Source: a virus
Lineage: Duplodnaviria; Heunggongvirae; Uroviricota; Caudoviricetes
DNA length: 64,000 nt
IMG/VR virus record: IMGVR_UViG_3300031998_000033
Span: 36,685-100,684 of that record
Direction: 5' to 3' (one strand)
Shown here: piece by piece, positions 5,922-57,156 of the stretch
How the letters are laid out: each line of letters begins with the position of its first letter
Numbering within the stretch: position 1 is the first letter of the stretch
Notes under the pieces: generated by a model
What the model was told of the DNA's origin: nothing
Databases searched by the model: none
Seen by the model: only the letters and a program-made list of their open reading frames with translations
Position numbers and translations under genes: made by a program

Positions 5922-7112
5922 TTATACTTTCTTATATCCGAACCGCAAAACCAACGTATTCATGAAGTTGACCGCGTATACGGAGACGAGAACACCGAAC
6001 AACGCCGCCTGCGAAAGAGATAATACCGACAGGACAAACGTCGACACGGCGAATGCGAACAGGCTTGCAAAACCCCATGCGCTGAGAAGCAGCCCATGGC
6101 AGAAGCTGAGTTCGGAACTGCCGTACCGCTCAAGCAGCACAGCCGGCGCCATCGCGAAACCGCATCCGTAACACGCGTTGACGATAATAAACGAAATCGG
6201 GGCGCACCGCGGATCGACCAGCACCAAAACAAGCGCGACTATCTCGAGGGCAAGGGCGCACAGCCATGAGTCAACGCGCCGACCCATATAGTCGCTTACG
6301 GCCGGAAACAGAAGGCGCCCGCCGCCGTTTGAAAGACCGCACAGCATCATTACGAATACAACAGCGCCTTCAGTAAGGCCGGACTCGGAAAGCATACCGG
6401 CGCATTGCCCGATTATCACCAGCCCCATGGCGATATTAAGGAACATGAACGTCCAGCACTGCAGAAAATAAGAATCCGAGACATACTTCAAAATCGAATA
6501 CGACTTGCCAGTCTGTTTTTTCAACGCGGCTTTCGCATACTTCGGCTTATCTATCATTATAGACCCTATAGACATCGAAAGCAAATAAACGCCCGCGAAA
6601 AAGAAAAACACGTTCTCTATCCCGAAATACGGAAACGCGTATTTGAACATATAAGAACAGATCGAAGAGCCGAGGCCGAAAGACACTATGGAAATCGCCA
6701 TTATAAGCGCCTTGTGGCTGGACTTGCCGAACCACAGCAGAAGGTTCTTGACCGGCGTGACGTACCCGACGCCTTCGGCAAGGCCACACAATACGCCGCA
6801 TCCGGCGTACAAAAGCCACACATTTTTAACATGCATCGCCAACGCCGATACGCAAAGACCGGCGAACAGCAGCGCTGTCGAAAGCCATGCCGCGCGCTTG
6901 ATGTTCTTCTCGACAAGCGAACCAAACGTGGCGGCTCCCATGCCAAGGAAGAAAATATTCAGGCAAAACGCGAACTGAACCGCGGCCTTAGACGCGCCGA
7001 GGCATCCCTGCGCCGGTCCAGAAAATAAGCTGAACGCGTACGTCCAGCCTATCGCCGTCGTCAGGAGAAAACACGGAATCAGCGACTTGCTCGCTTTATA
7101 TAAAAAAGACAT
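5922..7112 (-). CDS. MFS transporter (oxalate/formate-antiporter-like), about 396 aa, no TAG
   Basis: About 12 predicted transmembrane helices in a typical MFS layout. Likely start is MSFLYKASK at 7110-7112; the track ORF extends to 7190. TAA stop. Confidence 0.6.
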   Translation of the reverse strand: MSFLYKASKSLIPCFLLTTAIGWTYAFSLFSGPAQGCLGASKAAVQFAFCLNIFFLGMGAATFGSLVEKNIKRAAWLSTALLFAGLCVSALAMHVKNVWLLYAGCGVLCGLAEGVGYVTPVKNLLLWFGKSSHKALIMAISIVSFGLGSSICSYMFKYAFPYFGIENVFFFFAGVYLLSMSIGSIMIDKPKYAKAALKKQTGKSYSILKYVSDSYFLQCWTFMFLNIAMGLVIIGQCAGMLSESGLTEGAVVFVMMLCGLSNGGGRLLFPAVSDYMGRRVDSWLCALALEIVALVLVLVDPRCAPISFIIVNACYGCGFAMAPAVLLERYGSSELSFCHGLLLSAWGFASLFAFAVSTFVLSVLSLSQAALFGVLVSVYAVNFMNTLVLRFGYKKV

Positions 7113-7322
7113 CGTTATACCTTCTTCTTCAATGTTCCAAGAAAACACGCGGCGGCTTCGCCGGTAAGCTCGAACGGGCCAAACCCGCATACGCTGGCGA
7201 ACCTTGCCATGCGTTCCGCGGCGTCAACATCGGCGCCCCCGACCACAGCCTTCAAATACAGCTCTGGATCGGTGTTCGCCAAATCAGCGGCGTTCACTGT
7301 CTTGTCCCAGTCTACGTTCATA

Positions 7323-8823: not shown

Positions 8824-9256
8824 TTTCGTCAGACTGGTTTTCTTTAGCGTAGGATTTCTCGACTTCCGACAAATACCTATCGATTACGTCTGGGTCGAAG
8901 TTTGAAATAGTCTTGTCCTCTTTCTTCCACATAAGAAGAATCGCTTCTACAACCTCGCACGCGTTTTCGCCTTCTTCCATATGCAGGAAATGATTAACTA
9001 TATTGAATTCGAACAGCTTGCTTTTCACTGTACCGTCCTTTGCGACGGCGCATAGAAAATTAATAGGCTGAAACCCATAGAACGACTTCTTGTCGCAGGC
9101 TAGAGACGCGTCGCGGTGGAGGATCTGCCCGTCTACAACATACCTCGCATACTCGGCGCTCTTCATTTCGCGGCGCTTATCCGCAGTAAAAAGATCTAAA
9201 GCAAGACGTCTTTTCGCCGTATTCAAAAGACGCGTAATGTTTTTTCTATTAAGCAT
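8816..9256 (-). CDS. Hypothetical protein, 146 aa
   Basis: Intact ORF. First gene of the leftward block that diverges from the terminase operon. Confidence 0.45.
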   Translation of the reverse strand: MLNRKNITRLLNTAKRRLALDLFTADKRREMKSAEYARYVVDGQILHRDASLACDKKSFYGFQPINFLCAVAKDGTVKSKLFEFNIVNHFLHMEEGENACEVVEAILLMWKKEDKTISNFDPDVIDRYLSEVEKSYAKENQSDENA

Positions 9257-9389
9257 ATTAAAATTATCCGAAAGCAGAAAACGAACGGTACGTCTTTTAA
9301 ATGTTTTTTCTTCAGTTAAGACATATTAAAAAGTAAATCCTATTCTAAATAAATTCTAAAAACGAATAAATTCTAAAACTGATGTAAAT

Positions 9390-9773
9390 ATGAATATGGA
9401 TATGAATATGAATACGAATCAAGACAGATAGCTTTCGCATATTAAAAAACCCGGCGAAATAGACAGGATTTCCAAAGAAGAATTCGAATACCGCATTTCG
9501 GAAATCGCGAAATGCAAACGCGACATCAATTATTTCGCATCTAAATATTTTCGCATAATCAGCTTGGATTAGGGTCTTTAGATCATAAACCCATATCCTA
9601 AGCAGAAAGAACTTCTTGATTTTTTTGTACATGAAAACCGCGCGATAATAATAGCGTCGAGGCAGACCGGCAAATGTGTTTGCAAAAATACAAAAATCAA
9701 AATTAAAAATAAAAAGACAGGCGAAATAGAAGAATTGACAATTGAAGATTTCTATAAACGGTTTAAATTATAA
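9390..9773 (+). CDS. terL: Large terminase fragment A: N-extein ending in Walker-A SRQTGK, fused to a 32-aa N-intein (IntN1). Three in-frame TAGs.
   Basis: Frame-3 translation gives ...YFASKYFRIISLD(TAG)GL(TAG)IINPYPKQKELLDFFVHENRAIIIASRQTGK|CVCKNTKIKIKNKKTGEIEELTIEDFYKRFKL, then TAA at 9771. The extein resembles T4 gp17 (YFKI..SLDHGL...YQRDLLK.MHENRF...LSRQLGK). Missed by the ORF track. Confidence 0.7.
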
Positions 9774-11274
9774 GTAAATAAATCTAGCATTACGTTAGAA
9801 AGGAAAATACGTTTATGAAATTTTTCACACATTGTTGCCATTGTGGAAATAAATTTGAAACTAAATCGAAAAAAGCCAAATACTGTAGCTGGCTATGTAA
9901 AAAAATTGAAATTACCAAAGCACAATTTCCGAATGGATCAGATTATGTTGAATGCAAAATATGCGGTCTGCGCGGCAAGCAGATCATATAGCATATAACA
10001 AAAGTCCATAAGATGGAAATTAATGAATACTGCAAAAAATTCAATGTTAAATATGAAGATTTATAGACAAAAAGTTTAAGTATTCAAATGTCGACTAATA
10101 CAAAAAAAGCCTGCGTAGAAGGTCGCTGCGGTTTTCAAAAAGGCGGAGACAATCCGTCGAAAAAAGAAGAATGCCGGAACGGCCGGAACAGCGTATGGTC
10201 GATAAACTTCAAGGGATATGACGGTCTTTCCGATGAAGAGAAAACAGCCAGAATAAAGGCGCTGAGCGAACGAGCGCAGGCGTCACGCGACAGCAGACAC
10301 AACAACGCGACCAAGATCGACTACTACTTGACACGAGGATATTCCGAACAAGACGCGAAAAAAATGCTGCGGGAAAGACAGCGGACGTTCACGCTTGAAA
10401 AATGCGTGGCTAAACACGGAGAGGAAGAAGGCAGCAGGATATACGAGGACAGGCAGCGACGGTGGCAGAACACAATGAAGTCGAAGCCAGTTGAGGAAAT
10501 AGAACGCATCAACAAGGCTAAATTATTTAGCAACCGTAGAGGTTTTTCTATAATCAGTTAGGAATTGTTCGAAAATATAGTTAAACAATTACATGGTCGG
10601 TATAAAAAAATACATTATGCAACTATTACGCCGGGGCGTATTGACGGCGAATACATGGTATATAACAAACATACTAAAACTACATATTTTTTGGACTTTT
10701 ATATAGAAGACAACAACAAGGTAATAGAGTTCGACGGCGATTACTGGCATGGCGAAAAGCGCGGAAACCAGAAACGCGATGCGGAACGCGAAGCGAATCT
10801 CCGTAAGCTGGGCTACGCCAATATCCTGCGCGTCAAGGAACGAGACTACAAAGCCGATCCGGACGCGGTCACGGCGCAGTGCGTCGAATTCATAACGAAA
10901 GGCGATTTATGAACCTCTCTGATACTGTATCCCGTAAATTCGTAGATTCGGCAGACGCGTCGGATTATGAGATCCTGACCGACTCCGGCTGGTAGGATTG
11001 CGTCGCCGTACACAAGACGGTCAAATACGAGATATGGCGCGTCTAGACTGAACGCCATTCGCTGGAGTGCGCCGACGACCATATAGTATTCCGCGAAGAC
11101 ATGAGCCAGGCATTCGTCAAAGACCTTGTACCGGGCGACGCGATAATGACCGAGGACGGCGTTGAAAAAGTAATCTCAATGGAACGGACGGGGTAGTTCG
11201 AGAACATGTTCGACGTCGAGCTGGCCGACGACACAGACCATAAGTACTACACTAACGGGATACTGTCGCATAAT
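9675..11274 (+). mobile_element. Split intein 1 in the terminase P-loop: IntN1 9675..9770, nested homing endonuclease gene, IntC1 10912..11274
   Basis: IntN block A CVCKNT..I. IntC is about 121 aa with block B LECADDHIVF and blocks F/G FDVELADDTDHKYYTNGILSHN, followed by +1 Thr. Splicing would give SRQTGK-TTSYTIF, matching T4 gp17 SRQLGKTT. Confidence 0.65.
9815..10912 (+). CDS. Free-standing homing endonuclease (N-terminal zinc ribbon plus C-terminal Vsr/DUF559-like nuclease), about 365 aa, 3 in-frame TAGs
   Basis: ATG at 9815 with an aggaaaa RBS. Cys clusters CCHCGNKF...CSWLCKK and CKICG. C-terminal motif EFDGDYWHGEKRGNQKRDAEREANLRKLGYANILRV. TAGs at codons 59, 84 and at 10559. TGA at 10910-10912 overlaps the next ATG (ATGA). 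Confidence 0.6.
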
Positions 11275-11634
11275 ACGACGTCCTACACAATATTCGCGCT
11301 CTGGACGCTGATATTCAATCCAGAACAGCGGATAATGCTTCTTGCGAACAAAGCCGATACGGCGATCGAAATTCTTTCGCGAATCCAGCTTGCGTATGAA
11401 TATATTCCTACATGGTTGAAACCGGCTGTCATTACGTGGAACAAGAGCGAAATAATTTTTTCAAACAAATCCGTCATAAAAGGCTTCGCCACGGCATCGG
11501 ACGCGGCAAGAGGCTATAGCGCGAACTGCGTCGCCGGCGACACCAAGATAACAGTGCGGTTTAAAATACTGCCGTTTATGAAATTTAAAATACCAATATC
11601 CTGGCTGAGGTTCCTCGGCAAAGATAGTAAATAA
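10909..11634 (+). CDS. terL: Large terminase fragment B: Met + IntC1 + middle extein + IntN2
   Basis: Middle extein TTSYTIFALWTLIFNPEQRIMLLANKADTAIEILSRIQLAYEYIPTWLKPAVITWNKSEIIFSNKSVIKGFATASDAARGYSAN aligns to T4 gp17 residues following Walker A. It is followed by IntN2 CVAGDTKITVRFKILPFMKFKIPISWLRFLGKDSK and TAA. Confidence 0.7.
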
Positions 11635-13389
11635 ATATATGACAAAAGAAATAACAATAGAACAGCTTAAAAAAGATCTAGCGGACCTGCTTGAAACGTC
11701 GCCGGACAACTACGCGAGATTTCTGAAATCCGAAAAGTACAAAGACAAGTATGAAGGATACATCGACAAGATAAACGAACTGACGCCGCTTCTGCAGGAT
11801 CCGTATTATAAGCTGAAGACGAAAATATACTGGATACTGCACGACATACGCGATTTTCCTAGATGCCATTGCGAAGGATGCCATAATGTGATCGCACGTA
11901 ATGTCGTAAGCGCCGTCGTAGGATACAGCGGCACCGGCCTTTTCTGTTCGAACAGCTGCGCGCAGAAAAGCCAGATGCATAAAGACAAAATGCAAAAGCT
12001 GGCAAGGGAAAAATACGGAAGCGACACCGTCGTCGGATCGCCGGCCGTTCGCATGAAAATAAAAGAGGTGTTCAAACAGAGAGTCGCAGAGAATCCGAAC
12101 TTCTACGTCGGGCGCGCGGAGAAAAGCCGAAAAACATGCAGGATGAGGTACGGCGTGGACAATCCGCAGCAGGACGAGGAGATCCGCAGCCGGACTATGA
12201 CAACGTTCAAAAAGACAATGCTTAGAAAATACGGATATAACAATGCCCTGGACGTACCGGAGATCAGACGGAAAATACGGCAGACCAACATCAAAAAATA
12301 CGGCGTCGAATCCGTATTCCAGAATTCGGAAATGATGCAGACTGTACAGGAGCGCGCTAAATCTCCGGAATCGAAAGCCAAGCGGAAACAGACATTAGAA
12401 GAAAAATACGGCGTCGGCAATTCATTTCAGACGCAGCAGTCTAAAGACGCGGCGATAACGTCCATAAAGACAAAATGCTACAACAGGCTTCTGACAACAA
12501 GCGTTATTCCTAATTTTTCCCTTGAAGACTACTTGAACATAAAGGACTCGGGCAAAAACATAAAAACCGTACTGTCGTGGCACTGCGCCGAATGCGGCAG
12601 AGATTTCGACGCCGTGCCTTTCGAGCATTGCTATGGCAGATCCATAGCAAGGTGCATGCACTGCCATCCCATAATAAACACCGGCTATTCCGTTATGGAA
12701 AAAACGGTGCTCGACTTCGTAAAGGAGCTTCTTCCCGGCGAACGAATAATGGAAAACGACAAGACTATGCTTGTAAATCCCGAAACAGGCAGGAATCTAG
12801 AGCTGGACATCTTCATACCGTCGCTCATGAAGGCCATAGAGTTCCAGGGAACATACTAGCACAGCTTCGAAAAACAGAAGAAGTATGACGCGATAAAAAT
12901 AGAAGAATGCCGGAACAACGGAATAGACCTTATGCAGCTAGACGAAAGCATGTGGACAGACGACAGGGACGCCGCGAAAGCCGCGATATCTGATTTCATA
13001 TTCAACTTAGAAGACCAAACGCTATGAAGCTTTCAGAATCGATAAAACGCCTGTATAAGAAGATAACAAGCATACGCGGCGCAGTGGAGGTGGAAACCGA
13101 CCGCGGATGGGAACCTGTCGAATACGTCATGCAGACGCCGGCGCAGCAGATATACGAGATAACGACCGAGAATGGCCTGGTTTTGAAATGTTCCGCCGAC
13201 CATATCCTGATAGACGCCGAAGGCAATGAAATGCTCGCGAAGGATTCGGCCGGCAGAAAAGTAAAAACCGCCGGGGGCAACGCCGAAATAGTACGGGTGA
13301 GAACGACGGACGAAAAGGCGGAACTATACGATCTTTCGCTCGGCGGAGACCGCCATGCGTACTATGCCGGCGGAATATTGTCGCACAAC
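11527..13389 (+). mobile_element. Split intein 2 at the terminase Walker-B site: IntN2 11527..11631, nested homing endonuclease gene, IntC2 13027..13389
   Basis: IntN block A CVAGDTKIT. IntC has block B LKCSADHILI and blocks F/G LYDLSLGGDRHAYYAGGILSHN, followed by +1 Cys. Splicing would give ARGYSAN-CVICDEFGFV, matching the gp17 Walker-B region. Confidence 0.65.
11639..13027 (+). CDS. Free-standing homing endonuclease 2 (zinc finger, KYG repeat modules, C-terminal Vsr/DUF559-like domain), about 462 aa, 1 in-frame TAG
   Basis: Frame-2 ORF between the two halves of intein 2. Motifs HCEGCHN...CSNSC, repeated KYGVDNPQQDEEIR / KYGYNNALDVPEIR / KYGVESVFQNSEMM modules, and ELDIFIPSLMKAIEFQGTY. TAG at 12857. 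TGA at 13025 overlaps the ATG at 13024. Confidence 0.55.
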
Positions 13390-14745
13390 TGCGTCATATG
13401 CGACGAATTCGGTTTTGTCGCCAATAATATAGCCAACAAGGTCTTCGAGTCCATCTACCCCGTAATCTCTTCGTCGAAGAAGTCGAAATTCATAATCGTG
13501 TCGACCCCCAACGGCGCCGATCCGAACAACCTCTACTACAACCTGTGGCAGCAGGCCAACCAGAAGAGCTACGATAAGAACAAAGAAGGCTGGAAACCGT
13601 TCAGAATCGACTGGTGGGACGTGCCCGGCCGCGACCAGAAGTGGAAAGAGATGACCATCGCGTCGATCGGCGAAAGGCGGTTCGCGCAGGAGTTCGGCAA
13701 TGAGTTCCTGGCCGGCAAACAGAGCCTCAAGCTCATCCCGGACGACATAATAGAGAAATTCAGGATGGAAGCGTCGCGGATGAAAGCATAGGGGCAGGCG
13801 CCGGTCGAGCAGCAGATCCTTTCTGAAAACGAGCAGATGGTGTACAAGTTCAGGATGTGGGCGGAGTTCGACCCGAAAAGAACGTATGCCGCGGCGGCAG
13901 ATATCGCGGAAGGCGTCGGAAAAGACAGCTCCGTATTATATATATTCGACGTCACCGACCTTAGCCGCATAATAATGTGCGCGGCGTTCTCGTCCGATAC
14001 CGTGTCTCTTGTAGAATTCGCGTACGTATGCTCGAAAATCCTTCCGCTTTACGGATCGCCGCCGCTGTTCGCGGAAAGGAACGGCGTTTCAGCCGGTATG
14101 CTGGATTCGTTACGTATAACCTATAAATACCCCAATATAGCGAGGGAATCCAAAAACGGAGAAGCCGGCATCTACTCGCATGTAACAATAAAAGGCCGGG
14201 CTTGCCTATGGGCGCGCGACATGATGACGACGATGGGATTCGGTTTCATTCTTCCCGACCAGGCCCTGCTCGACGAAATGGGCACTTTCGTTAAGAAAGA
14301 AACAAGCGGGCGACATACCGTATTCCAGGCCGCTTCGGGCTCGCATGACGACCACATCATGGCGCTGGTATGGCTATGCTGGGGACTAAATAAGGAAATT
14401 GTCGACAAATATTTCATCGTAGTGAAGACATTCGAATCCCAGCTCGGCGAACTTCTGCCGCAGATGCTCATGCCGATGACAGCATACAACGGCGCGCAGA
14501 TAAAACAGATATCCTAGGATCCCATATACCGCCGGTTCGTGGAAATAAAAAATGAATGTCTCTCGTCCTACAACGCGGCGATGAACGCCGAACAGAACGC
14601 GCAGGAAGACATATTCCAATGGAAAAAAAACCAGCCTCAGTATTTCGACGACGAATGGATAAGTCCGTCATGGAATGAAAACGAAAATCTACAACAGCGG
14701 TCAGTCAATCCAAATAACATCATGCCGTCATTTTTCATAAGCTGA
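13024..14745 (+). CDS. terL: Large terminase fragment C: Met + IntC2 + C-extein (Walker B, ATPase C-motif, nuclease domain). Two in-frame TAGs.
   Basis: C-extein CVICDEFGFVANNIANKVFESIYPVISSSKKSKFIIVSTPNGADPNNLYYNLWQQA matches T4 gp17 MIYIDECAFIPNF...QPVISSGRRSKIIITTTPNGLNHFYDIW. TAGs at 13789 and 14515 are in frame. TGA at 14743. Confidence 0.75.
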
Positions 14746-15249
14746 CAAAATCCGTTATTTTTCCAGTTGTTAACGTTCTGCAATGTCTACACGTTGATAA
14801 CGATCGGCGTCATGGGTTTTCGTCTCAGCGCCCGGCTTCCGCTTTTGAGAGATACCGTTCGAATCTGTTGAGGAATTCCGATACGTCGACATATTCCTAT
14901 ATGAACTCATTGCGCTACTCCCGCGTCATATTCTTTATATATGGAACAGCGGCGTCGTCCGCCTTGCACCACAATATCAAATAATGCCTGAACCATGTCT
15001 TTATCCGCGGTCCGTACTCCGCAATAAAAGCCTAAAGAGTCTCCTGCGGATATTCGTTTTCCAACGTTCGGATCTGTACGTTTCCGATATCTTGCTATCG
15101 GAGAATACGCCTTTCCGCCCTGCGGCGTTGCCGGTCCGCGCGCTTCTGGCTTTTGCTCTCCGAAGATTTCTCCTCACGGGATGTTAGATCTTCCATGTAT
15201 ATATTTACAAAAAAGACCTCTGTTAGCAAACTCTGCAAAACCAGCAACG

Positions 15250-20036: not shown

Positions 20037-21046
20037 TCAGCTTCTACGCATACCTGTGCTAGACACCATTGCGGCGCATGCCGTGCCGCTTTCTTCGTCG
20101 TAATTGAACCCTTCGTTCAGATCGATCCACTCCGTCCAATTATTGGCGTCTTCGCTGTCCGAAATCTCTTCGGCAAAGTCATTTAGTTCTTCGCGTAAGC
20201 CCGATGGTATTATGCCGTTGTCCAACGCCTTTTCGCAGAACCACTGTAGTATGCCGTATATAAGCATATATGAAATATTATATCCGAGCGTCTTGTATCC
20301 GTGCCGGGCGGCGTCAGCGAGTATTTCGTTCAGCCTATCGACGTATACTTCCATACCGCCTACCCTACCGTTCTTGCTGACTGCTTCCTTGTGGCGGACA
20401 TTCTTAGATGAGCATTCTTTGTACACCTACAGGGCCTTCTCAGCAGTGGCAAGAGCTTGATCTGGGAACTTGTGGCTGTTTGCTTGGTCCCATGGAACGA
20501 CTTCCCCGCTGGGTCGCACCTCCAGCGCAACCTTATCAAGGTCGTCTCCGGCCGGCTTTAGCTTGATGAGGAACAGGAAGTCGGTTTTGCGGGTAGCGAA
20601 ATACCTCTTGAAATGGTCTTGGTTGTCAGTCGAAATACACCACCCAGTAGACTTGCCCTTATAAAACCTGCCGAGGACCTTGGCCGCATCGTAGCTCGGG
20701 ACTAGCCAGACTTCGTACCCGTCTACGTCCGGCGACAGCATCTCCGCTCCGGCGCGCTCGGCCTGCGCTTTGTACTCGGTGTCCTTCCGCTCCGATCGGT
20801 TTCTCGTGTCGAACTGCTGGACGAAATCCCTGAACTCGGAAAACGGCCTGGCCTGCCAGTACTCTATCGCGTTCTCTGGGCTCTTGCACTTGTGCCGCAC
20901 AGTGTTCCAGTACAGGCCGAACAGGTTTTCGAAGTCCGGCTCAGCCCCGTACTTTTTCTAAAACGCCTGCTTGTCCTCTGACAGAAGCACGCCTTCCCAA
21001 TAGGAGATAGCCTCCGCGATCTGCCTCTTAGTATACATCTTCTTTA
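20037..21046 (-). CDS. Leader-family protein 1 (MYTKRQIAEAISYW...) with a 'YEVW...GKS.GWCIST' domain, about 336 aa, 2 in-frame TAGs
   Basis: Track ORFs 20427..20900 and 20037..20426 are in one frame joined by TAG 20427. The N-terminal extension passes through a further TAG to ATG ~21044. The central domain is paralogous to 49810..51321. Confidence 0.5.
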
Positions 21047-21054
21047 TGATGTTA

Positions 21055-21834
21055 TCTTTCTTTTATTGACGTTATCTCAATGTCCTTGAAGTTATATTCT
21101 TCTGGATGTTCATTTAAAAACTTCTTTCTAGCTTCAGCTTCATCTTTAGCTTCAACCTCAGTCTGATATTTGTCTTGATGCCAAGCTGTATAACCTATAG
21201 TGAATGTCTTTACAGCATTGATTTCTTCTCCATACCAATCATCGCTGTCCTAGGAGTATATGTCTTTACCTGCAGCAGCTCGTTCTACCATTTTCACATA
21301 TGAGTCTATTTCATTCACCAGCCTGTCTGCCTTGTATGTGATATTCCAGTCTTCAGAGAATGAGCGGCGGTGGCGATTCGTGAAAGTCTTTTCTACGAAA
21401 TTGTCTACTTCAGCAAGATCTTTGCCGTCATCATGAACTGTGAATTTACCAGTGTCTATGTCAACATATAAACTTCCGCCATCCGCGCCTCCGCCTTCTA
21501 TCCCGAACAGTCTGTCTTTAATTCTATTAAAACCTAGATTATGGAACCAGCCATTAGTTTTGAACTTGTTATAATAATGGTAAAAATCTTTTTTATACTA
21601 ATATTTTCCGCCTATATCGGTATATTTGACCTTACCATGCTTGAATAAGTCTGTGACTAGCTAATGAGCTTTCCTTAGCTTTGGAAGCAGCTTGATGATC
21701 TAATTGCATGAGTCTCGCAAATCAATGTTCTAATAAGCTTTCTCACATATGCTCTTGTAGTTTCCAGCTCTAAGCTGCTTCTTCCAGTAAGCGATCGCCT
21801 CCGTAATTTGCTTCTTTGTGTATGTCTTTTTCAT
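21055..21834 (-). CDS. Leader-family protein 2 (MKKTYTKKQITEAIAYWKKQL...), about 259 aa, 5 in-frame TAGs
   Basis: ATG at 21832-21834. Translated by hand to TAA ~21055. No track ORF because of the TAG density. Confidence 0.5.
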
Positions 21835-21988
21835 CTTTTTGTTTTCCTTTATCGTAACGGAAGTCCGTACCATCTTGAACGGCCGCGGTTTTGTGTTAGC
21901 CATAGAAATATCCCCGTCCCAGTCTTCAGGATCGACGAACTTCCCGCCGTCTACGACCAGAAACGCGTCGTCGTGCCCGGCCGGCGAA

Positions 21989-24073
21989 TCAGCGGAACGA
22001 GAACGGACGCAGGAACATTTCCTTTCTGAGCTGCTGGTTCCTGTACGTCCCGTAGCCGTACGACTTTCCGGCCTTTATCAGGTTGGCGGCGGCCTTCCTG
22101 TCTCCCATGTCGTAGAACGTCTTGAGCATGTTGTTCAGATAGTTCACGAGGGCCGGCGCGCTGTAGTCGTCGTACCGCGCCGGCTCATACGGGAAAGACT
22201 GGTTTACCATGGCGCGCGCCAGCCGCAGGTCCACGACGTTGTCCCTGAACCTCTGGAACACTCCGGCGACGTCGCCGACGGTCTCGTCGAGGGTTTTGGC
22301 GAAAGCCATGAGCTTCTCGCTTCCAAACTGGTTGTGCATGGACAGCGTGGGCGAAGTCGGACTGGCTTCGAACTCCAGCTTGTTGAACCATCCGTCCTCG
22401 CCCAGCCCCCAGAACGCGAACCAGCGCCCGGCCTGGGCCGACGCCCTCGACTTCCCGGCGAGGCCCGTCGAGCAGTAGAACGGGACGAGGGCTTTTCCTA
22501 TAGACGCCACGACGATGACGCGCCCCGCATATACCATGAACTTGTCGTATCTCCCCGGCGCCATCCCCACTAGATCGGGCATGCCGCAGATGGCCTCCGC
22601 CTTCTGCCGGGCGGCTCCGCCGGCGGAGTTGGCCTTCATGCGCACTCTGGCCTTCTTCTGCCGCGCTGCCTTCCGCTCGGCCTCGCGCCTCGACTCCTCG
22701 CCGAGCTGCCGGTCCTCGCGGTCTTCGAGGATGAGGCGCTTGTCCTCCATGGCCTCGTCGAGCATGTGCGCCCAGTAGTATATCTGTCTGTCCGATTCGG
22801 ATATTGTTTTCGTTTCGCCCGTCTTCACCATCTTGAACGGTCTCGGCTTCGTGTTGTCCGGCGTAATCTCGCCGTCGTATTCGTCCGGGCGCACGAATTT
22901 CTTGCCGTCCTTCACCAGAAAGGCGTCGTCGTGCCTGCCGCTGTTCAGCCATTTCTCGAGCTTTTCCCAGTCCATCTCGCCGCCCCAGTAGACGTTCGTG
23001 TCGTCCGGCATCGGAACCTTCTTGAAGCCGTAGTCCTGCAGCCTCGAAATGCCGCTGATCCCGCCCGGCGTCGCCCCGCCGCGCGCCTGCAGCTCCATGC
23101 CCTTCTCGCACGACGCCGCCAGGGCCTTATACATGTCGTCCAGCACCTTCTCGTCCTTCGGCGCGGTCCCGAAGTTCTCGAAGTGCATCTGCCAGGCGCC
23201 GTCCTGGTCTATGACTACCATGAACGGCTTCTCCTGGTCGAAGCCGGGATTGACGTCCTTGTGCGCCAGGACGAACCCGTCATAGCCCCAGCACATGTCC
23301 TTCTGCTTCTCGCACGCGTCCAGGCGCAGGACGCGCCCGAGGTCCGACACGGGCGGCTTTCCGGCGTCCTCCTGCAGCCGTCTAGGCCCGCGGCCCCGCC
23401 CTCTGCACGCCTCGACCGCGGCCTTGACGCGCGCCGGGTCGTCGCTCTGCATGTCGTCCGCCTTGTGCTGCAGAAGCCAGTTCACCTCTCTCATGGAAAG
23501 CGTATACGCCACGCTGGACTGCACGTCCGGGTCGATTGACATCAGCGATCCGGGGCCGTCTATGATCCCCTTTATCCCGGGCTTGGCGCGGATCATGTCG
23601 TCAAGCACGACTTTGTACGGGTGGACGTGTTCGGCCCTGGCCCTTTCCATTATCTCGGCCGCCCATTCCGCGAAGTCCAGCAGCTCCCGGTCCGTCGCCT
23701 CCATTACGCCGTCCATTGGGGCGTATTCGTCGTCCAGCTTCTTCAGCGCGGCGCGTATGGACTTAGCGCTATGTCCGCCTCCGGCCATCTCCAGAAACCG
23801 GCCGAGGCAGTGCGTCACGGTCTCCAGGGCGTCTCCCTGCAGAAAGCTTTCCGCCGCCGCCGGGTAGCCGCACAGCTCTTCGACGGAGTCCTTCCACACG
23901 TCGAACACCGGAAGGTTCTTGTCCAGGAACGCGACGAATACCACCGGACGCCACATGTCGCAGCCGAACAGGTCCATGTATTCGAACTCGTTAGAGAAAA
24001 ACGCCGGGCGGGCGGGACTGGCGTTTATGTCCGGAAAGCGCGAACTCTGCTTGCGATACCATACTCTGTTCAT
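21989..24073 (-). CDS. Large hypothetical protein, 694 aa, GC-rich (about 62%) and free of TAG
   Basis: Single intact ORF with a TGA stop. GC and codon usage differ from neighbours. All other long ORFs at this locus are alternate-frame artefacts of the high GC. Confidence 0.6.
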   Translation of the reverse strand: MNRVWYRKQSSRFPDINASPARPAFFSNEFEYMDLFGCDMWRPVVFVAFLDKNLPVFDVWKDSVEELCGYPAAAESFLQGDALETVTHCLGRFLEMAGGGHSAKSIRAALKKLDDEYAPMDGVMEATDRELLDFAEWAAEIMERARAEHVHPYKVVLDDMIRAKPGIKGIIDGPGSLMSIDPDVQSSVAYTLSMREVNWLLQHKADDMQSDDPARVKAAVEACRGRGRGPRRLQEDAGKPPVSDLGRVLRLDACEKQKDMCWGYDGFVLAHKDVNPGFDQEKPFMVVIDQDGAWQMHFENFGTAPKDEKVLDDMYKALAASCEKGMELQARGGATPGGISGISRLQDYGFKKVPMPDDTNVYWGGEMDWEKLEKWLNSGRHDDAFLVKDGKKFVRPDEYDGEITPDNTKPRPFKMVKTGETKTISESDRQIYYWAHMLDEAMEDKRLILEDREDRQLGEESRREAERKAARQKKARVRMKANSAGGAARQKAEAICGMPDLVGMAPGRYDKFMVYAGRVIVVASIGKALVPFYCSTGLAGKSRASAQAGRWFAFWGLGEDGWFNKLEFEASPTSPTLSMHNQFGSEKLMAFAKTLDETVGDVAGVFQRFRDNVVDLRLARAMVNQSFPYEPARYDDYSAPALVNYLNNMLKTFYDMGDRKAAANLIKAGKSYGYGTYRNQQLRKEMFLRPFSFR

Positions 24074-25069: not shown

Positions 25070-25405
25070 TCAGATATGTCCGTGCTGGAGCAGCGAGTTC
25101 AACTGACTTATGAAATCATAGTCCCTTTCGGCTTCGTCGGACGAGCTTCCGCCCTCGACGGTGATTTCGAGCCGGCCTAAACCGGAGTTGTTGGCCAGTT
25201 CGCCGCCGAACTTCCTGTACAGCGCGTCGAACATAGCGTCGGCCGCGGTATAGCTGTTGGCGCCGTCATATTTGATCTTCAGCGTCGCCTCGCAGCTGCA
25301 CTTGTTGCCCTCGATCTCATTAAGGCGCTTTGTCCAGTAGTCGATAGCCTCTTTGATGCATTTCTTAGTATACTTCTTCATGTGACAATCCTTTTTAGAT
25401 TTCAT
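25070..25405 (-). CDS. Leader-family protein 3 (..MKKYTKKCIKEAIDYWTKRL...), 111 aa
   Basis: Leader begins at the second Met. TGA stop. Confidence 0.5.
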   Translation of the reverse strand: MKSKKDCHMKKYTKKCIKEAIDYWTKRLNEIEGNKCSCEATLKIKYDGANSYTAADAMFDALYRKFGGELANNSGLGRLEITVEGGSSSDEAERDYDFISQLNSLLQHGHI

Positions 25406-29587: not shown

Positions 29588-30787
29588 TCAGCATCCGCTC
29601 GGACGGTTTAACATGTCCTCGTAAAGCCTCACGGCCGCAAGCGCGATCGCCGGTACTTTCCGGCCGTTGCGGCAGTAGGCCGCGTCTACCAGCTCGGACA
29701 TGAATTGATACCTGTCCTTCCATGAAAACGATATACGCTCATGCTCGTCCAGTTTCTGGCTAAACTCCGCGTACTTGGCATAGTCAAGGTCTACATAGAA
29801 ATAGTGCATCGTATTCGTCATGAAAGCCGGGTTCGGGTTTGTCAATCCAAGCTTTATGACCTTCGACTTATCGAAAACGGAAATCCCCGTCTCCTCCCTC
29901 AGTTCGCGGACGGCCGCGTCGAGCGGGTCTTCGCCCGGCTCGACCATGCCGCACGGAAATTCCTCTATTTCCTCTCCGGCGCCATATCTGAATTGCTTTA
30001 CGGTCAAAACGTTATGGCCTTTCTGAACTATGACAGTCACCCAATCGGGAGCCTTGACAAGAATAGGCTTCAACCCCGTCTCAGCCTCCGCACCGCGTAC
30101 GATATCGAAGATCGGAGTATGCAGGAGAACATGCTCGTCAGCGGATCCGTCTATTTCGGCCAGCGCGTCTTTAACATATTCTTCCGGTCCGCCCGAATTC
30201 ATATACTTCCCGCGGACGGCGGAGGCTGAAACGCCTGCGAACTTCGAATCGATATCGACAGTCTTCAGCTTACCTTCGAACGCCGTATTTTCCTTAAGGA
30301 ACAGCTTCTCGTCGAATTCCGAACCGCTACGGCCGACGACGGCTATGATTCCGCCGCTCTGCGATAGAATATCCTGCCATGCGAACCATGTTTTAAAATT
30401 AAGAAGCTCGTCGACGCCGATGATCGGCCAGAACTCGCGGTCTGGAGAATATCTGTCCAGCTTGATTCGAAGCAGCGTATCTATAAACCGCCAGCTCTTG
30501 ACGGCATGCTCGGTCAGATTTTTACTTCCGGAACAAAGTTCTTTCCGTTTCAATTCCGTATCGTCGATGTATACGGGACAAAGGCCTTTCGTCATGGCCT
30601 TTATTACCTCGATCTTCTCATCAGTACGAAGCCATTGCGTCTTGCCGGCCCGGTGCCAGTCTACGATCGTCGGCGCTATTATGACCGCGTCGACAATATG
30701 CCGTTCAAGAACCTGCTTCACGATCTCGCGGTGCGCCGTAGTAAACGGATCCGCCGTACAGCCGAATATGCCTATTTTCTCTTTCAT
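29588..30787 (-). CDS. Bifunctional NMN/NaMN adenylyltransferase plus Nudix hydrolase (similar to KVP40 NatV)
   Basis: N-terminal (H/T)xGH nucleotidyltransferase motif GIFGCTADPFTTAHREIV. C-terminal Nudix box GMVEPGEDPLDAAVRELREETGI. 399 aa, no TAG. Confidence 0.7.
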   Translation of the reverse strand: MKEKIGIFGCTADPFTTAHREIVKQVLERHIVDAVIIAPTIVDWHRAGKTQWLRTDEKIEVIKAMTKGLCPVYIDDTELKRKELCSGSKNLTEHAVKSWRFIDTLLRIKLDRYSPDREFWPIIGVDELLNFKTWFAWQDILSQSGGIIAVVGRSGSEFDEKLFLKENTAFEGKLKTVDIDSKFAGVSASAVRGKYMNSGGPEEYVKDALAEIDGSADEHVLLHTPIFDIVRGAEAETGLKPILVKAPDWVTVIVQKGHNVLTVKQFRYGAGEEIEEFPCGMVEPGEDPLDAAVRELREETGISVFDKSKVIKLGLTNPNPAFMTNTMHYFYVDLDYAKYAEFSQKLDEHERISFSWKDRYQFMSELVDAAYCRNGRKVPAIALAAVRLYEDMLNRPSGC

Positions 30788-37845: not shown

Positions 37846-39069
37846 TTACTCGTACTTCAATCTCCAATCAATTGTACGTTTCAAATAATCAACATAGTCA
37901 TTATCTCTACACATACCTTTTGAAGGTGTATTTGAAAGTTTTGCGACTGGCTTTCCATTGCACTCAACCATCTTGAATACAATGTTAAGTGGATCTACTG
38001 GCAGATCGCAAGTCAAAAATGTGCCAATTCCAAATGCCACATTCGTCCTGTCCTTGAAGTGCTTCCTTATAGCAGTCGCCTTTTCAAAGTTCAGCGAATC
38101 CGAAAACAAGAGAGTCTTGGTCTTAGAATCAATGCCAAGCTTCTTGTAGTAGTCAAGCATCAGCTCACCCCACCAGATAGGGTCACCAGAATCATGACGG
38201 ACTCCGCTGAACAACGTAGCGAAGTTCTTGTCGAAATCCTTCAAGAAGACTTCAGTTCCAATCGTGTCAGTAAGAGCGATGCCCAAGTCGGTCTTGTAAA
38301 CCTCATTCCAGACTTTCATGATCTCGGCATTAGTGTAGGACTTCTCAAGGCCCGGCTTCTGCTGCACACCCATATAAAGCTCATGTGCCTGCGTACCAAT
38401 TGGCTTTGTGCCATATTTATGCGCCAGCCAAACATTCGAAGTCCCGACAAAGCCTGGAATATTCTCATTGACGAGATACTTGATAAGCCACTCCTGCATC
38501 TTCTTCGAGTAGCGACGGCGGGTGCCGAACTCCGAAAAGACCCCAATATCGTAAACACCGTCCTTGACTTTGCTGAATTTCTCGATAGTCCTCTTCTGAA
38601 ACTCGATATCGAGCTCATCAAGCCTGTCTGCATACTTCATCCTGAACCAGACTTCCGAGACGATCGCAAGAATAGCTATCTCGTAGAGTGACGTATCAAG
38701 CCAAGTACCTTCGGCCTCGATTGCAAGGCCGCAATCATTATAGGTCTGCATTCCTATCTCATTGATATGGATGTCTTCGCGGTTAGGATGCCAATTCTTG
38801 AGATTATTGACGATGTATGCAGGCGGTAGCCATCTAAAATCGATTTTTAATCCAGTAATCTCTTCTTTAGAGAAAGTAAGCTTGCAGAACCAGTCAATCT
38901 GGTCCTTTATTTCTTTTACCATTTCTGGCGTAAAACGCACATCGGAATTACGTACCTTCAAGGCCCAGCGCGCGGTGTAATCACCGTAATACCGGTCAAT
39001 GACCGCGCCCATATTAGGCTTATAGGCATCTATATCTGTTAAATTAGTTATAATTGGTGGAAGTATCAT
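37846..39069 (-). CDS. pncB: Nicotinate phosphoribosyltransferase (PncB)
   Basis: TDAYK, FSEFGTRRR, VGTSNV...IGTQAHE, GIALTDTIG, GVRHDSGDP, FGIGT.LTCD and VECNGKPVAKLS all co-linear with E. coli PncB. 407 aa, no TAG. Confidence 0.8.
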   Translation of the reverse strand: MILPPIITNLTDIDAYKPNMGAVIDRYYGDYTARWALKVRNSDVRFTPEMVKEIKDQIDWFCKLTFSKEEITGLKIDFRWLPPAYIVNNLKNWHPNREDIHINEIGMQTYNDCGLAIEAEGTWLDTSLYEIAILAIVSEVWFRMKYADRLDELDIEFQKRTIEKFSKVKDGVYDIGVFSEFGTRRRYSKKMQEWLIKYLVNENIPGFVGTSNVWLAHKYGTKPIGTQAHELYMGVQQKPGLEKSYTNAEIMKVWNEVYKTDLGIALTDTIGTEVFLKDFDKNFATLFSGVRHDSGDPIWWGELMLDYYKKLGIDSKTKTLLFSDSLNFEKATAIRKHFKDRTNVAFGIGTFLTCDLPVDPLNIVFKMVECNGKPVAKLSNTPSKGMCRDNDYVDYLKRTIDWRLKYE

Positions 39070-41640: not shown

Positions 41641-42111
41641 TCAATTATAGTCATCCGCCGAACCGTCGTCGTACTGATAGTTGTCGAAGTAGAACTCCAC
41701 TCCGAATTCGCCTTCCCCGTTTTTCACGCTCGCAACCACAGTGTCGTAATTAAGTTCGGCGTCGCACGAGTCTTCTAAAGCCCAAAGCACCTTTTCTTCG
41801 AAATCCTCGACAGACAGGGTAGTCTTGGCTGTTACGGAAATCCCATGCGACGTATCGGAAACATTGACGTCCGAAATTCCATCGACGCTTTCGATTTCGT
41901 TTTTGATCGCTTCTAGCCCAACTAACTCTATTTCGTATCCGGCGTCGTCTTCGTATCCGGCGTCGTCTTCGTATCCGGCGTCGTCTTCGTATCCGGCGTC
42001 GTCCAAATCATTCATATCTTCGTTTACCTTGCGGTAATTGCCCTTGGCGAGCTGTTTCTTCCAGTAGGCGATGGCTTCCTAGATCTGCTTCCTGGTGTAG
42101 GTCTTCTTCAT
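41641..42111 (-). CDS. Leader-family protein 6 (MKKTYTRKQI(TAG)EAIAYWKKQLAKGNYRKVNE...) with (DDAGYE)x4 repeat, about 156 aa
   Basis: The TAG sits at the leader position that is Q, V, T or A in the other members. TGA at 41641. Confidence 0.5.
41935..42010 (-). repeat. 18-nt perfect tandem repeat x4 (gtatccggcgtcgtcttc) encoding DDAGYE
   Basis: Read directly from the sequence. Confidence 0.8.
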
Positions 42112-48592: not shown

Positions 48593-49810
48593 ATGATTAA
48601 CCTCGACGATATATTCCGTACGGCGGACGACGCGATAAACGAATCCAAAAAAACCGACGTATGCGAACTCGACCGCGTATGCACGACGTTCGCAGACGTC
48701 CGCGACGCCATGCGCCGGGCGGCCAAAGACGCCATCCAGATAACGCCGCTCGAAAACTGCGTAAAGGCGTACGTCACGCAGAAAGACGGAGACTTCGTCG
48801 TATCGCCGGATGTCCCGGGCAAAACCCAGTTTAAGCCGATGCAGCAGGCGAAGGCGTCCGACTGGAAAGTATCAAAACAACAGAAACCGATGCTCGACAA
48901 ATCGCTGAAAGACATTCATGATACGCTCCGCGGCATGAGCGACGACATGTCTTCGACATGGGGCAACGGAAGGAGCTGCGTGGAATGCGTTCTCGCGGCG
49001 CCGCCTGAGGGGCATGAAAAAGAATACGGCGGCAAATTCCTGGCCGTGTTCCCGGAAATCCTGCAGTTCGACGCGGGCGGAAACAGGATAGAAGGCCGGC
49101 CCGAAGGCGCCGAAGACCTCCTGGCGCAGATGAAAGAATGCCCATGCTGCGCCCAGACGAGCAAGACATGCATAGACGCGCTCAAGCATGCGCAGAAATG
49201 CAAGGAAAAGCTGGAGTCGCTCGAGAAGCGCCTTGAGAAAATGACTGACGGCCTCGGATGGCGCTGCTCGCTGGACCAATATGTCGACGACAAGTATTCA
49301 AGATATATAGTGAACGCGGCGATGCGGCACGGCATAGACGTGTCGCGAGACTCGCAGTTTGTTAAAAGCCTCGTGCGCAGGCTGGCTGAAATCGCGGTCA
49401 GGGGAAAGCCTACGCGGTCCGATCTCGCCACGTACGCGAAAGGCGACAAGGTGGACTTCAAATCGGACGCGTGCAGGCAGTTCATCGCGGACGTCGAACA
49501 GAACGCGGAGGAAACAAACGGCGAAGTGCTCGGCCCGATCCGCGATTTTACGACATGCCTCGCCAAGGCCGCGGCGAACATGGCGCTGGCGATAGCGCAG
49601 CTAGACGGCACCGACGACGTCAAAGACCTGGAGAAATGCCGGATACTGTCCGAAGAAGACGCTGCTCCCGGCCGCAAAACGCTTGAAAATGTCGTCAAAT
49701 ACTGCGAACGGGGACCGAAGACTAAAATCGTCGGGTGCAACGGCAGGCTGTATCTCATGCAGGCCGACTTCAGCGGAATAAACGCGATAACGCAGCTGTT
49801 CGGAATATAA
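48593..49810 (+). CDS. Hypothetical protein, 405 aa, no TAG
   Basis: aaggaga RBS; TAA stop overlapping the next ATG. Confidence 0.5.
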   Translation: MINLDDIFRTADDAINESKKTDVCELDRVCTTFADVRDAMRRAAKDAIQITPLENCVKAYVTQKDGDFVVSPDVPGKTQFKPMQQAKASDWKVSKQQKPMLDKSLKDIHDTLRGMSDDMSSTWGNGRSCVECVLAAPPEGHEKEYGGKFLAVFPEILQFDAGGNRIEGRPEGAEDLLAQMKECPCCAQTSKTCIDALKHAQKCKEKLESLEKRLEKMTDGLGWRCSLDQYVDDKYSRYIVNAAMRHGIDVSRDSQFVKSLVRRLAEIAVRGKPTRSDLATYAKGDKVDFKSDACRQFIADVEQNAEETNGEVLGPIRDFTTCLAKAAANMALAIAQLDGTDDVKDLEKCRILSEEDAAPGRKTLENVVKYCERGPKTKIVGCNGRLYLMQADFSGINAITQLFGI

Positions 49811-56003: not shown

Positions 56004-57156
56004 ATGAGCAAATACCTTACAGAATTTGACGAGCTCCAGGCGGCGCTTAGGAAAGTCCGTCTTGACGAGGACTGCATGATATACCGCAACGGCATGCTTC
56101 TCGAAGACAGCAAGGCCGACGCGTACAGGAAAGTATAGAAACTTCTGCAGTCTCCGCAGATGAGCGAAGCGCATCCATGGCTGTATAAACGCGATATTGA
56201 TTTCCTTACAGAAGAGGAAATCGAGCGCATAAATAAGCTTTTCGACTATGGCGTGAAAAACGGATTCGTTGACAACAGCTTCGAAGAAGAGCTCGAAAAA
56301 AGCGAAAACCCCGATGCCGTCGTCGCCGATGAAGAGCCTGAAAAGGCCGAGCAGACCGCGGAACCGCCTGCATAGGATGAAAAACGCAACGTACCGATTC
56401 CGTGCTGGACGATTTTGTACAGCGCGACAAAAAACGGCGAAACAAAATGCGGCGAATGCTACTCCAACGCGATTTCAGTATCGGCCGCGAAAGCCGACTG
56501 CCTTGCCAAACTCGAACGTTTCGGTTATGCCAATATAACAGTGCTTGCTATCGAAGCCGGCGATCCAGACTGCGCTAAAATACAGAATTCCGACATTGAA
56601 CAAAATCGTTTCCAGCAAGTAGATGAAGCGGAAGAATCTGACGACGGCTCCGACGACAGCTCCGACGACAGCTCCGACGACGCCGGTGATGATACAGACG
56701 ATACCGGTTCTGATGATTTTAGCAGTGACGATACCGGTTCTGATGATTTTAGCGGTGACGATACTGATGACGACACTGGTTCAGACGATACCGAGTCCGA
56801 CGATACCGAGTCCGACGATACCGGCGACGATACCAGTTCCGACGATACCGGTGACGACACCGAATCCGACGATACCGGCGACAACACCGAAGATAAAGGT
56901 GAAGACGATACTGACGATGATGAAGAACTTTCAGACGAAGAAAAAGCTCAGCTGAAAGACGAATATAAAACAAAATTCCAGGAAATTATGATCGCCTGCG
57001 GTTTTGAAGACAGATCGTTTATCGATCTAACCATCCCGGAAAAAACCAGGTTCTTCGAAAAGATGAATGCCCAGTGGGACAAGGCCGATCCGACGAAATT
57101 CATGTCTGAAGACGAGCAGAATCAGCTTGAATCGATCACTGTGACTGTGAAATAAT
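56004..57156 (+). CDS. Acidic low-complexity protein with (S/T)DD tandem repeats, about 384 aa, 2 in-frame TAGs
   Basis: Track ORFs 56160..56375 and 56415..57155 plus an upstream segment from ATG 56004 form one frame, joined by TAG 56136 and TAG 56373. D/S/T-rich repeats lie at about 56630-56900. Confidence 0.45.

Follow-up and report, generated by a model that had tools for sequence, protein, structure and literature searches.

The terminase large subunit (TerL) of phages is a known host of inteins and homing endonucleases. Fractured genes, which combine a host gene, a split intein, and a free-standing homing endonuclease, were described by Dassa et al. in 2009, and one of them was a Myoviridae-like terminase locus (PMC2677866). 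For AceL-TerL, GOS-TerL, and the Cat consensus, the N-terminal intein half (IntN) is 25–37 amino acids (aa) long and the C-terminal half (IntC) 104–115 aa (PMC11766414). Mycobacteriophages have contiguous TerL inteins, with or without an endonuclease embedded in them (Kelley et al. 2016, PMC5050341). The EDxHD family of endonucleases, whose prototype is I-Bth0305I, was first noticed in fractured genes (PMC3239194), and the terL fragments of Jug phages, which have standard-code genomes, were attributed to group I introns (PMC12880540). Here, we analyzed a 64,000-nucleotide stretch of a caudoviricete genome (IMG/VR record IMGVR_UViG_3300031998_000033, positions 36,685 to 100,684), hereafter called the window, in which a terL gene resembling T4 gene 17 lies in three pieces, A, B, and C. 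At a probability of roughly 85%, we consider it to be a doubly fractured gp17-type TerL gene whose three products are joined by two split inteins.

The three pieces of the terminase gene

A preliminary description made from the letters of the window had proposed three separately initiated terminase pieces in a recoded genome. The three open reading frames (ORFs) are indeed present on the plus strand, at 9390–9773 (A), 10909–11634 (B), and 13024–14745 (C). Eight in-frame stop codons lie inside them (three in A, three in B, and two in C), and all eight are TAG, as the proposed recoding implies; A and B terminate with TAA and C with TGA. Reading TAG as sense lengthened ORFs throughout the window, and close homologues have Gln at four of the eight positions (QLSHIKK, GLQII, SGWQDC, and MKAQG). 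These results suggest that TAG is likely reassigned to Gln.

Each piece was dissected into extein and intein segments (Table 1). In A, the N-extein ends with SRQTGK and is followed by an IntN starting CVCKNT. After its initiating Met, B carries an IntC that ends in GILSHN, a middle extein (TTSY...YSAN), and a second IntN starting CVAGDT. C opens with Met and another IntC, also ending in GILSHN, which precedes the C-extein (CVICDEF...). The order and intein lengths that had been given for B were retained, with 84 rather than 83 aa for the middle extein; for C, the order of Met, IntC, and C-extein stood, and the IntC after Met was revised from 119 to 121 aa. Both gaps are filled by plus-strand ORFs, H1 and H2, and the starts of B and C lie in ATGA overlaps with the stops of H1 and H2, respectively. 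The locus is thus a tightly packed array on one strand, in the order A, H1, B, H2, C, and goes far beyond what chance would produce.

Removal of the intein segments in silico yielded a 630-aa protein. The preliminary description had suggested aligning this product with T4 gp17, and the alignment (E 2.6e-46) contained no indel at either junction and extended to residue ~553. At junction 1, srqtgk-ttsytif lies opposite srqlgk-ttvvaif of T4 gp17, and at junction 2, ysan-cvicdefgfv lies opposite nsfa-miyidecafi. The spliced product covered positions 1–204 of 215 of Pfam Terminase_6N in one stretch and aligned as a single tblastn piece with more than 200 phage TerLs at 30–34% identity. Walker A, Walker B with the catalytic Glu, and the C-terminal nuclease domain stand in one polypeptide only after in silico splicing (SRQTGK-TT and CVICDE). 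In the AlphaFold2 (AF2) model of a homologue of B, P0001, the middle extein superposed on the T4 gp17 ATPase domain with a root-mean-square deviation (rmsd) of 1.4 Å over 84 columns. The predicted junction-2 peptide of the spliced product is GYSANCVICDEFGFVANNIANK, and the predicted tryptic peptide after the junction-1 Lys starts with TTSYTIFALWTLIFNPEQR (TTSYTIFALW...). A second TerL was not found in the window, which holds one TerL and only these two inteins.

An uninterrupted terL, P0074, was detected on locus L083 (sample SRR18573358) with the same three upstream genes. P0074 was 80% identical to the spliced product over 311 residues with 0 gaps. Its empty site 1 reads CAAACTGGAAAA followed directly by ACGACTTCATAT, and its empty site 2 reads TATTCCGCAGGC followed directly by ATTGTTATCATG. 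Among relatives, site 2 alone is occupied in P0025 and P0029, site 1 alone in P0021 and P0022, and neither site in some. Such presence/absence polymorphism is as expected of mobile inteins, and the junctions are therefore fixed to the residue. The gap-free alignments with T4 gp17 and L083 place them at GK/T and N/CVICDE (the slash marks the insertion point), in agreement with the earlier claim that splicing would regenerate the P-loop and the Walker B strand. The N-extein was 88% identical to that of locus L084 and 76% identical to that of the uninterrupted L083. Judged from these alignments, the natural empty allele P0074/L083 is the strongest evidence that the exteins belong to one terminase.

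Identity along the C-extein was uneven. Compared with L084:2888–4642, the C-extein (window 13390–14742) was 90–95% identical over its first 80 residues and 31–65% identical past residue ~120. The break lies near an empty intein hotspot (site 3, residue ~103) and may mark the edge of a recombined or co-converted tract.

The sequence of the window is contained, without a difference, in the 277,570-bp ENA contig ERZ27257204 k141_6112942. Among the genes of the window are T4-like ones for a DNA polymerase, a clamp loader, and a portal. The portal is only ~24% identical to portals of cultured phages, the nearest cultured TerLs are ~33% identical to the spliced product, and a megablast search of the locus against GenBank phages gave no match. 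Because the replication and portal genes are T4-like and the portal is this distant from cultured ones, the source is, as judged from its genes, a deep-branching, TAG-recoded, T4-like jumbo phage that is uncultivated. A scan for promoters and terminators gave counts not above those in shuffled sequence.

Table 1. Segments of the three-piece terL locus in window coordinates
Feature	Position	Strand	Basis
TerL N-extein, 95 aa, ends with Walker A SRQTGK	9390..9674	+	alignment with T4 gp17 ~106–167
IntN of intein 1, 32 aa, CVCKNTKIKIKNKKTGEIEELTIEDFYKRFKL, plus TAA stop	9675..9773	+	site-1 intein profile
H1, predicted free-standing homing endonuclease gene, 365 aa, 3 TAG codons	9815..10912	+	DUF559, I-Bth0305I profile match
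IntC of intein 1, Met + 121 aa (...LECADDHIV...MFDVEL...GILSHN)	10909..11274	+	VidaL match
TerL middle extein, 84 aa, Thr+1 of Walker A to ...ARGYSAN	11275..11526	+	T4 gp17 alignment
IntN of intein 2, 35 aa, CVAGDTKITVRFKILPFMKFKIPISWLRFLGKDSK, plus TAA stop	11527..11634	+	conserved in middle-piece homologues
H2, predicted free-standing homing endonuclease gene, 462 aa, 1 TAG codon	11639..13027	+	PHROG 3339
IntC of intein 2, Met + 121 aa (...LKCSADHIL...LYDLSL...GILSHN)	13024..13389	+	gp41-1 match, AF2 model
TerL C-extein, 451 aa: Cys+1, Walker B CVICDE, remaining ATPase, nuclease domain, TGA	13390..14745	+	T4 gp17 alignment

Identity of the inteins and the endonucleases

The catalytic residues of intein 1 are C1, CADDH in block B, MFDVE in block F, and SHN/T at the C-terminal junction; those of intein 2 are C1, CSADH, LYDLS, and SHN/C. 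Across homologues that are 35–85% identical, Cys1, the block-B His, the block-F Asp, the terminal His-Asn, and the +1 residue (Thr/Ser or Cys) were invariant or nearly so, and Cys207, the Cys1 of the IntN of intein 2 (IntN2), was invariant in the middle-piece homologues. A site-1 intein profile was built from 21 sequences, comprising split inteins fused in silico and naturally contiguous ones. IntN1 matched positions 1–31 of this fused/contiguous alignment and was 63–74% identical to the IntN1 of loci L001 and L003. In addition, contiguous mini-inteins at site 1 of L019 (151 aa) and L068 (156 aa) are colinear with IntN1 plus IntC1.

The absence of matches to the HINT (intein) domain had been named in advance as an outcome that would speak against inteins; both profile searches of the PDB and Foldseek searches returned inteins. 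With single sequences, the intein pieces matched gp41-1, VidaL, CatC, and the Spl DnaX intein. The best PDB match of IntC1 was VidaL (E 1.1e-4 with the single sequence and 3.7e-12 with the profile) and that of IntC2 was gp41-1 (E 3.3e-5), with Pfam Intein_splicing matching IntC2 at E 3.9e-7. The site-1 profile retrieved HINT chains exclusively, led by VidaL (3.7e-12), gp41-1 (9.5e-10), and CatC (2.5e-7), then the DnaX, TFIIB, PolB16, NrdJ-1, and CDC21 inteins, with weaker matches to intein-like BIL chains.

Structural models covered the IntC halves, through P0001, which is 85% identical to piece B, and a 255-aa ORF of the window itself. Foldseek searches with the P0001 model returned VidaL at the top, then the T4 gp17 ATPase domain, and then ~40 inteins. 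In the model of the 255-aa ORF, most of the IntC2 segment (residues ~21–120) had a predicted local distance difference test score of 70–94. In Foldseek, it superposed on VidaL with an rmsd of 1.4 Å over 103 columns; next came gp41-1 and Cat, and after these more than 50 further inteins. These models, together with the profile matches, indicate that both insertions have the intein (HINT) fold.

The two inteins had been thought to be related, and their IntC halves are 33% identical. IntN1 and IntN2 share only the first strand, CV...TKI.(I/V)(K/R). The net charge is +4 for IntN1 and −15 for IntC1; IntN2 (+6) is more hydrophobic, and IntC2 has −3. Ratios of nonsynonymous to synonymous substitution rates (dN/dS) against the nearest relative, L084, were 0.18 for IntN1, 0.12 for IntC1, 0.14 for IntN2, and 0.12 for IntC2; these values are rough, with synonymous sites near saturation.

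IntC halves 45–59% identical to IntC1 were also found on other contigs (P0077–P0120). There, they are fused to ClpX-like AAA+ proteins (PF07724/PF10431), DnaB-type helicases (PF03796), and a RecA/RadA-like protein, so that this family of atypically split inteins would have spread into several P-loop ATPases.

Endonuclease genes had been expected inside both splits, and the matches of H1 and H2 agree with this. H1 matched Pfam DUF559 with 31.6 bits (cut-off, 20.6) and also MTES_1575. When H1 and H2 were searched singly against the PDB, no useful match resulted, and a family profile was needed. Built from the C-terminal domain of the H1 family, this profile matched I-Bth0305I best (3r3p, its catalytic domain, E 6.8e-5) and the Vsr endonucleases next (E 0.012). 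The family has invariant D, E-F-x-G, and W-H. The N-terminus of H1 is Cys-rich and Zn-ribbon-like, with only weak matches to Zn-ribbon and ROS_MUCR-like domains. H1 homologues occupy site 1 in 59 other loci, and the dN/dS of H1 against L084 (0.16) corresponds to purifying selection. H2 matched PHROG 3339, annotated as a homing endonuclease (E 2.8e-36), and Pfam DUF7487 (E 1.4e-21), and its C-terminus matched the H1-family Vsr-like nuclease profile at E 9.3e-9. By these matches, H1 and H2 are Vsr-like (EDxHD-type) homing endonucleases with predicted activity. Both genes contain TAG codons and are therefore adapted to the recoded genome.

Recurrence, alternative explanations, and genomic setting

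IMG/VR was scanned with the middle-piece alignment, and at least 541 of 600 pattern matches were relatives of the query. Eighty loci were retrieved and 6 more added, so that 86 were classified; all counts include near-duplicates. Split and contiguous inteins were distinguished by the length of the ORF to the nearest stop, under the standard code unless TAG clearly interrupted conserved domains. The site-1 intein was present in all 80 retrieved loci. Four insertion sites recurred: site 1, GK/[ST]T (Walker A); site 2, N/C..DE (before Walker B); site 2b, /THLL[DE][DE]; and site 3, QEF./C.F.GS. At site 1, the intein was split in 41 of 60 scorable loci and contiguous in the remaining 19, either as a mini-intein or as an intein of 405–443 aa. 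The split IntN measured 30–53 aa in 40 of the 41 loci, the exception being L010, which ends at a contig edge. Likewise, the split IntC measured 114–128 aa in 40 of 41, except in L004, where an endonuclease is fused in frame to IntC. The halves are usually separated by 0.8–1.5 kb. H1 homologues at site 1 either stand free, form an in-frame fusion with IntC (L004), or lie in frame inside the large contiguous inteins. The split point is the endonuclease insertion point, before block B, which would explain why the family is "atypically" split.

Among the 86 classified loci, a three-piece TerL with two split inteins was found in 16, at least 13 of them distinct. Sites 1 and 2 are split in the window, L084/L085, L001, and L003, and sites 1 and 3 in L005, L025/26, L051/52, L056, L067, L070, and L072. 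L006 is split at sites 1 and 2b and L023 at sites 1 and 3, each with a contiguous intein at site 2. The pairing of P-loop and Walker B insertions therefore occurs in three lineages besides the window, and all loci split at sites 1 and 2 have in-frame TAG codons. The layout recurs in independent assemblies of other samples (L084 and L085, L001 and L002, and L003). Two splits in one gene had been called unusual; this is only relatively so, in view of the distinct loci counted here in public sequence data.

The content of gap 2 differed among these loci. L003 contains homologues of both endonucleases, with the H2 homologue at the same position. In L084/L085, H1 is kept (72% identity), and H2 is a 51-aa remnant (L084:2712–2906 and L085:3001–3195) that is 67% identical to H2 residues 409–459; the split intein halves are intact. 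H2 has decayed and the gene has not been rejoined, and the split therefore outlives the endonuclease. Because the split persists in L084/L085 despite this decay, the three-piece arrangement looks evolutionarily locked in. In gap 2 of L001 (~50% identity; L001:9527–10276), Pfam matches to OrfB_IS605 and Cas12f1-like TNB were detected. These are TnpB-type ORFs, not a homing endonuclease, and a different mobile element would therefore occupy that split. Intermediate states of site 1 were also seen in L017/18, L021/22, L027/29, L044, L047, L063/64, L071, P0015, and P0040. P0015 has three inteins: split at site 1, contiguous at site 2, and an IntN directly past the Walker B Asp-Glu.

We propose the following mechanism. 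The five packed, same-strand ORFs are probably expressed together, by co-transcription, and to judge from the ATGA overlaps, B and C would probably be translated in coupling with the endonuclease genes. IntN1 (32 aa) would dock on IntC1 (121 aa) and IntN2 (35 aa) on IntC2, each pair completing a HINT fold. Class-1 trans-splicing would follow, with an acyl shift at Cys1, attack by Thr+1 at site 1 or Cys+1 at site 2, Asn cyclisation, and a final acyl shift to a peptide bond. Ligation would join K95 to T inside Walker A (GK/T) and N to C immediately ahead of the Walker B strand (SAN/CVICDE), giving the 630-aa terminase, and neither ATPase motif would be present before splicing. H1 and H2 presumably cut intein-free terL genes of co-infecting relatives, which would lead to copying of the IntN-endonuclease-IntC cassette.

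The IntC-extein-IntN layout cyclises peptides in engineered systems. Piece B has this topology, and a working system is therefore predicted to need two orthogonal inteins. That the locus performs a natural one-pot ligation of three fragments, in which two orthogonal atypical split inteins assemble an essential motor and the middle piece avoids self-cyclisation, is a tentative proposal that we rate slightly below an even chance.

Several points weigh against the main explanation, a doubly fractured terL whose products are joined by two split inteins. Piece B has the layout just described, and the starts of the two IntN are shared, so that cross-reaction of the inteins is possible. Pfam Intein_splicing scored below the gathering cut-off on every piece. 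In intein 1, Cys1 is combined with Thr+1, and position −3 of block B is Ala, as it is in VidaL. The AF2 model used for piece B is that of the 85%-identical homologue and not of the window's own protein. TAG positions align with Gln in close homologues at only four of eight sites, and no tRNA gene, including any suppressor tRNA gene, was found in the 64-kb window. What the analysis shows directly is the sequences, their homology, the fold, the conserved catalytic residues, purifying selection, the empty allele, and recurrence in other samples; splicing itself is an inference.

The intein halves might instead be docking domains, with one or both inteins splicing-dead, so that the terminase would work as several chains. 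A precedent is the split NrdA, a phage enzyme whose fragments are kept together by interaction domains that originate from a mobile element (PMC3045599). However, docking alone would not need the catalytic residues, which are invariant or nearly so, and a 120-aa domain would be left inside Walker A and beside Walker B. We regard non-covalent assembly as unlikely.

Another explanation is that terL has been wrecked by endonuclease insertions and that the phage uses a terminase encoded elsewhere. The window represents 64 kb of a 277.6-kb genome, which leaves room for a second TerL outside it, whereas none was found within. However, all pieces are intact ORFs, dN/dS is 0.03–0.2 in exteins and inteins, and the three-piece layout is kept in lineages that are only ~50% identical (L001 and L003). 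These results make a decaying terL highly improbable.

Removal at the RNA level was also considered, in which group I or II introns would carry the endonuclease ORFs and the mature mRNA would be contiguous. Fragmentation of terL into two or three parts by group I introns is reported for gut jumbo phages (PMC12880540), and Vsr-like endonucleases also occur in group I introns (PMC2677866). By contrast, a real stop ends each piece here and an ATG opens the next, the position of this ATG is conserved in 14 homologues, and in 41 of 60 loci IntC is immediately preceded by stop codons. Even at E values up to 1, a permissive Rfam search over 9000–15200 gave no match, and we rejected the intron explanation as hardly tenable. 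An artefact or chimera of the short-read metagenome assembly from which the window derives (a k141_ contig) deserves the least credence, since the same piece order occurs in DRR507851, DRR595542, ERZ15610113, ERR10754355, and IMG 3300021426.

Other genes of the window were recorded as well. Three ORFs (29588–30787, 37846–39069, and 5922–7190, minus strand) are auxiliary metabolic genes, comprising a fusion of a cytidylyltransferase-like domain (resembling nicotinamide mononucleotide adenylyltransferase) with NUDIX, a nicotinate phosphoribosyltransferase (E 8.5e-69), and a major facilitator superfamily transporter; this set suggests that the phage encodes salvage of nicotinamide adenine dinucleotide. 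Several of the minus-strand ORFs at 20037–21038, 21052–21903, 25070–25405, and 41641–42111 share the N-terminal motif (K)KTYTKKQI.EAI.YWKKQL, and the ORFs with this motif look like a family of paralogous modules. TKPRPFKMV(R/K)T occurs at the start of 21052–21903 and within a 694-aa minus-strand ORF (21989–24073). The latter had no PHROG match and overlaps a GC-rich island at 22001–24000 (0.63 versus ~0.50 elsewhere). The plus-strand ORF 49810–51321 and the minus-strand ORF 20037–21038 share the block G.YEVW..PS..AA...GR.YKGKS..WCIST and look like paralogues, with no Pfam match for either. The plus-strand ORF 56004–57155 contains a long, central, acidic low-complexity stretch of DDTGSDD/SDDT repeats.

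Significance and comparison with known systems

Inteins that are atypically split and have a short IntN tag are valued tools in protein labelling and semisynthesis. To our knowledge, only a handful have been characterised, namely AceL-TerL, GOS-TerL/Cat, VidaL, and PolB16. The locus offers two new atypical split-intein alleles that nature has already paired in one protein. Their use together in one protein implies that they are orthogonal and would work in the Cys1/Thr+1 and Cys1/Cys+1 contexts. If this is true, ready-made orthogonal pairs with short tags would become available, and DNA packaging could be gated after translation, by splicing. The 80 IMG/VR loci, all with a site-1 intein, could supply many more split inteins. 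Furthermore, one gene family displays the life cycle of endonuclease and intein: the empty allele, the contiguous mini-intein, the intein with an in-frame endonuclease inside, the fusion of endonuclease and IntC, the free-standing endonuclease between the two halves, and halves that stay split after the endonuclease has decayed. In recoded jumbo phages, gene callers and annotation pipelines will overlook terminases or break them into fragments.

The preliminary description had likened the two inteins to the atypical split inteins of terminases, and the likeness stands for geometry and family and fails for the allele, because the insertion site differs. Like AceL, GOS, and Cat, they reside in a T4-type TerL and are encoded in separate ORFs, with a short IntN (32 and 35 aa), a long IntC (121 aa), and the block-B His in IntC. 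They belong to the same broad sequence and fold family as Cat (CatC profile, E 2.5e-7; Foldseek, 3.6e-6), and their similarity to CatC is distant in single-sequence comparisons (E 0.0075–0.26). Unlike AceL, GOS, and Cat, they are inserted in Walker A and before Walker B (+1 residues TTSY and CVICDE). The IntC at site 3 of L025 matched CatC at E 6.6e-23 with a +1 Cys-Glu, which assigns AceL-TerL, GOS-TerL, and Cat to site 3 (QEF./CEFLGS). Site 3 of the window is unoccupied and reads QEFG-NEFLAG. An assignment of the window inteins to the AceL/GOS-TerL allele was rejected on account of the different site.

VidaL (PDB 6vgv), an ultra-short, atypically split intein, is the top profile or structure match of both inteins and shows the same block-B variant C-A-x-x-H and an ending of the form ...G(I)(L/V)SH, at ~24–28% identity in Foldseek alignments. 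The IntN of VidaL is ~16 aa long. As in the mycobacteriophage TerL inteins (PMC5050341), the window inteins use the "classic" P-loop site between the invariant Lys and Thr, as well as Walker B. However, the mycobacteriophage insertions at the P-loop and Walker B are in terminase_1-type proteins and are not paired as two split inteins in one gene. H1 resembles I-Bth0305I in its C-terminal Vsr-like nuclease core, putative DNA-binding N-terminus, and association with fractured genes, and differs from it in that I-Bth0305I resides in a group I intron and the N-terminus of H1 is Cys-rich and Zn-ribbon-like.

The components of the locus are all of known kinds, and their combination as two split inteins in one natural gene is apparently unreported; a search of the open-access literature found no such gene, which is not proof of absence. 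The closest counterparts are the fractured genes of Dassa et al. The order of N-extein-IntN, endonuclease, and IntC-C-extein on one strand is the same and occurs twice here; a Vsr-like endonuclease, a phage context, and a targeted conserved motif of an essential enzyme are also shared. In contrast, the genome here is TAG-recoded, with TAG codons in the endonuclease genes as well. The loci of Dassa et al. are fractured in two (PMC2677866), whereas the window has two cassettes and three pieces, and its middle piece is flanked by IntC and IntN.

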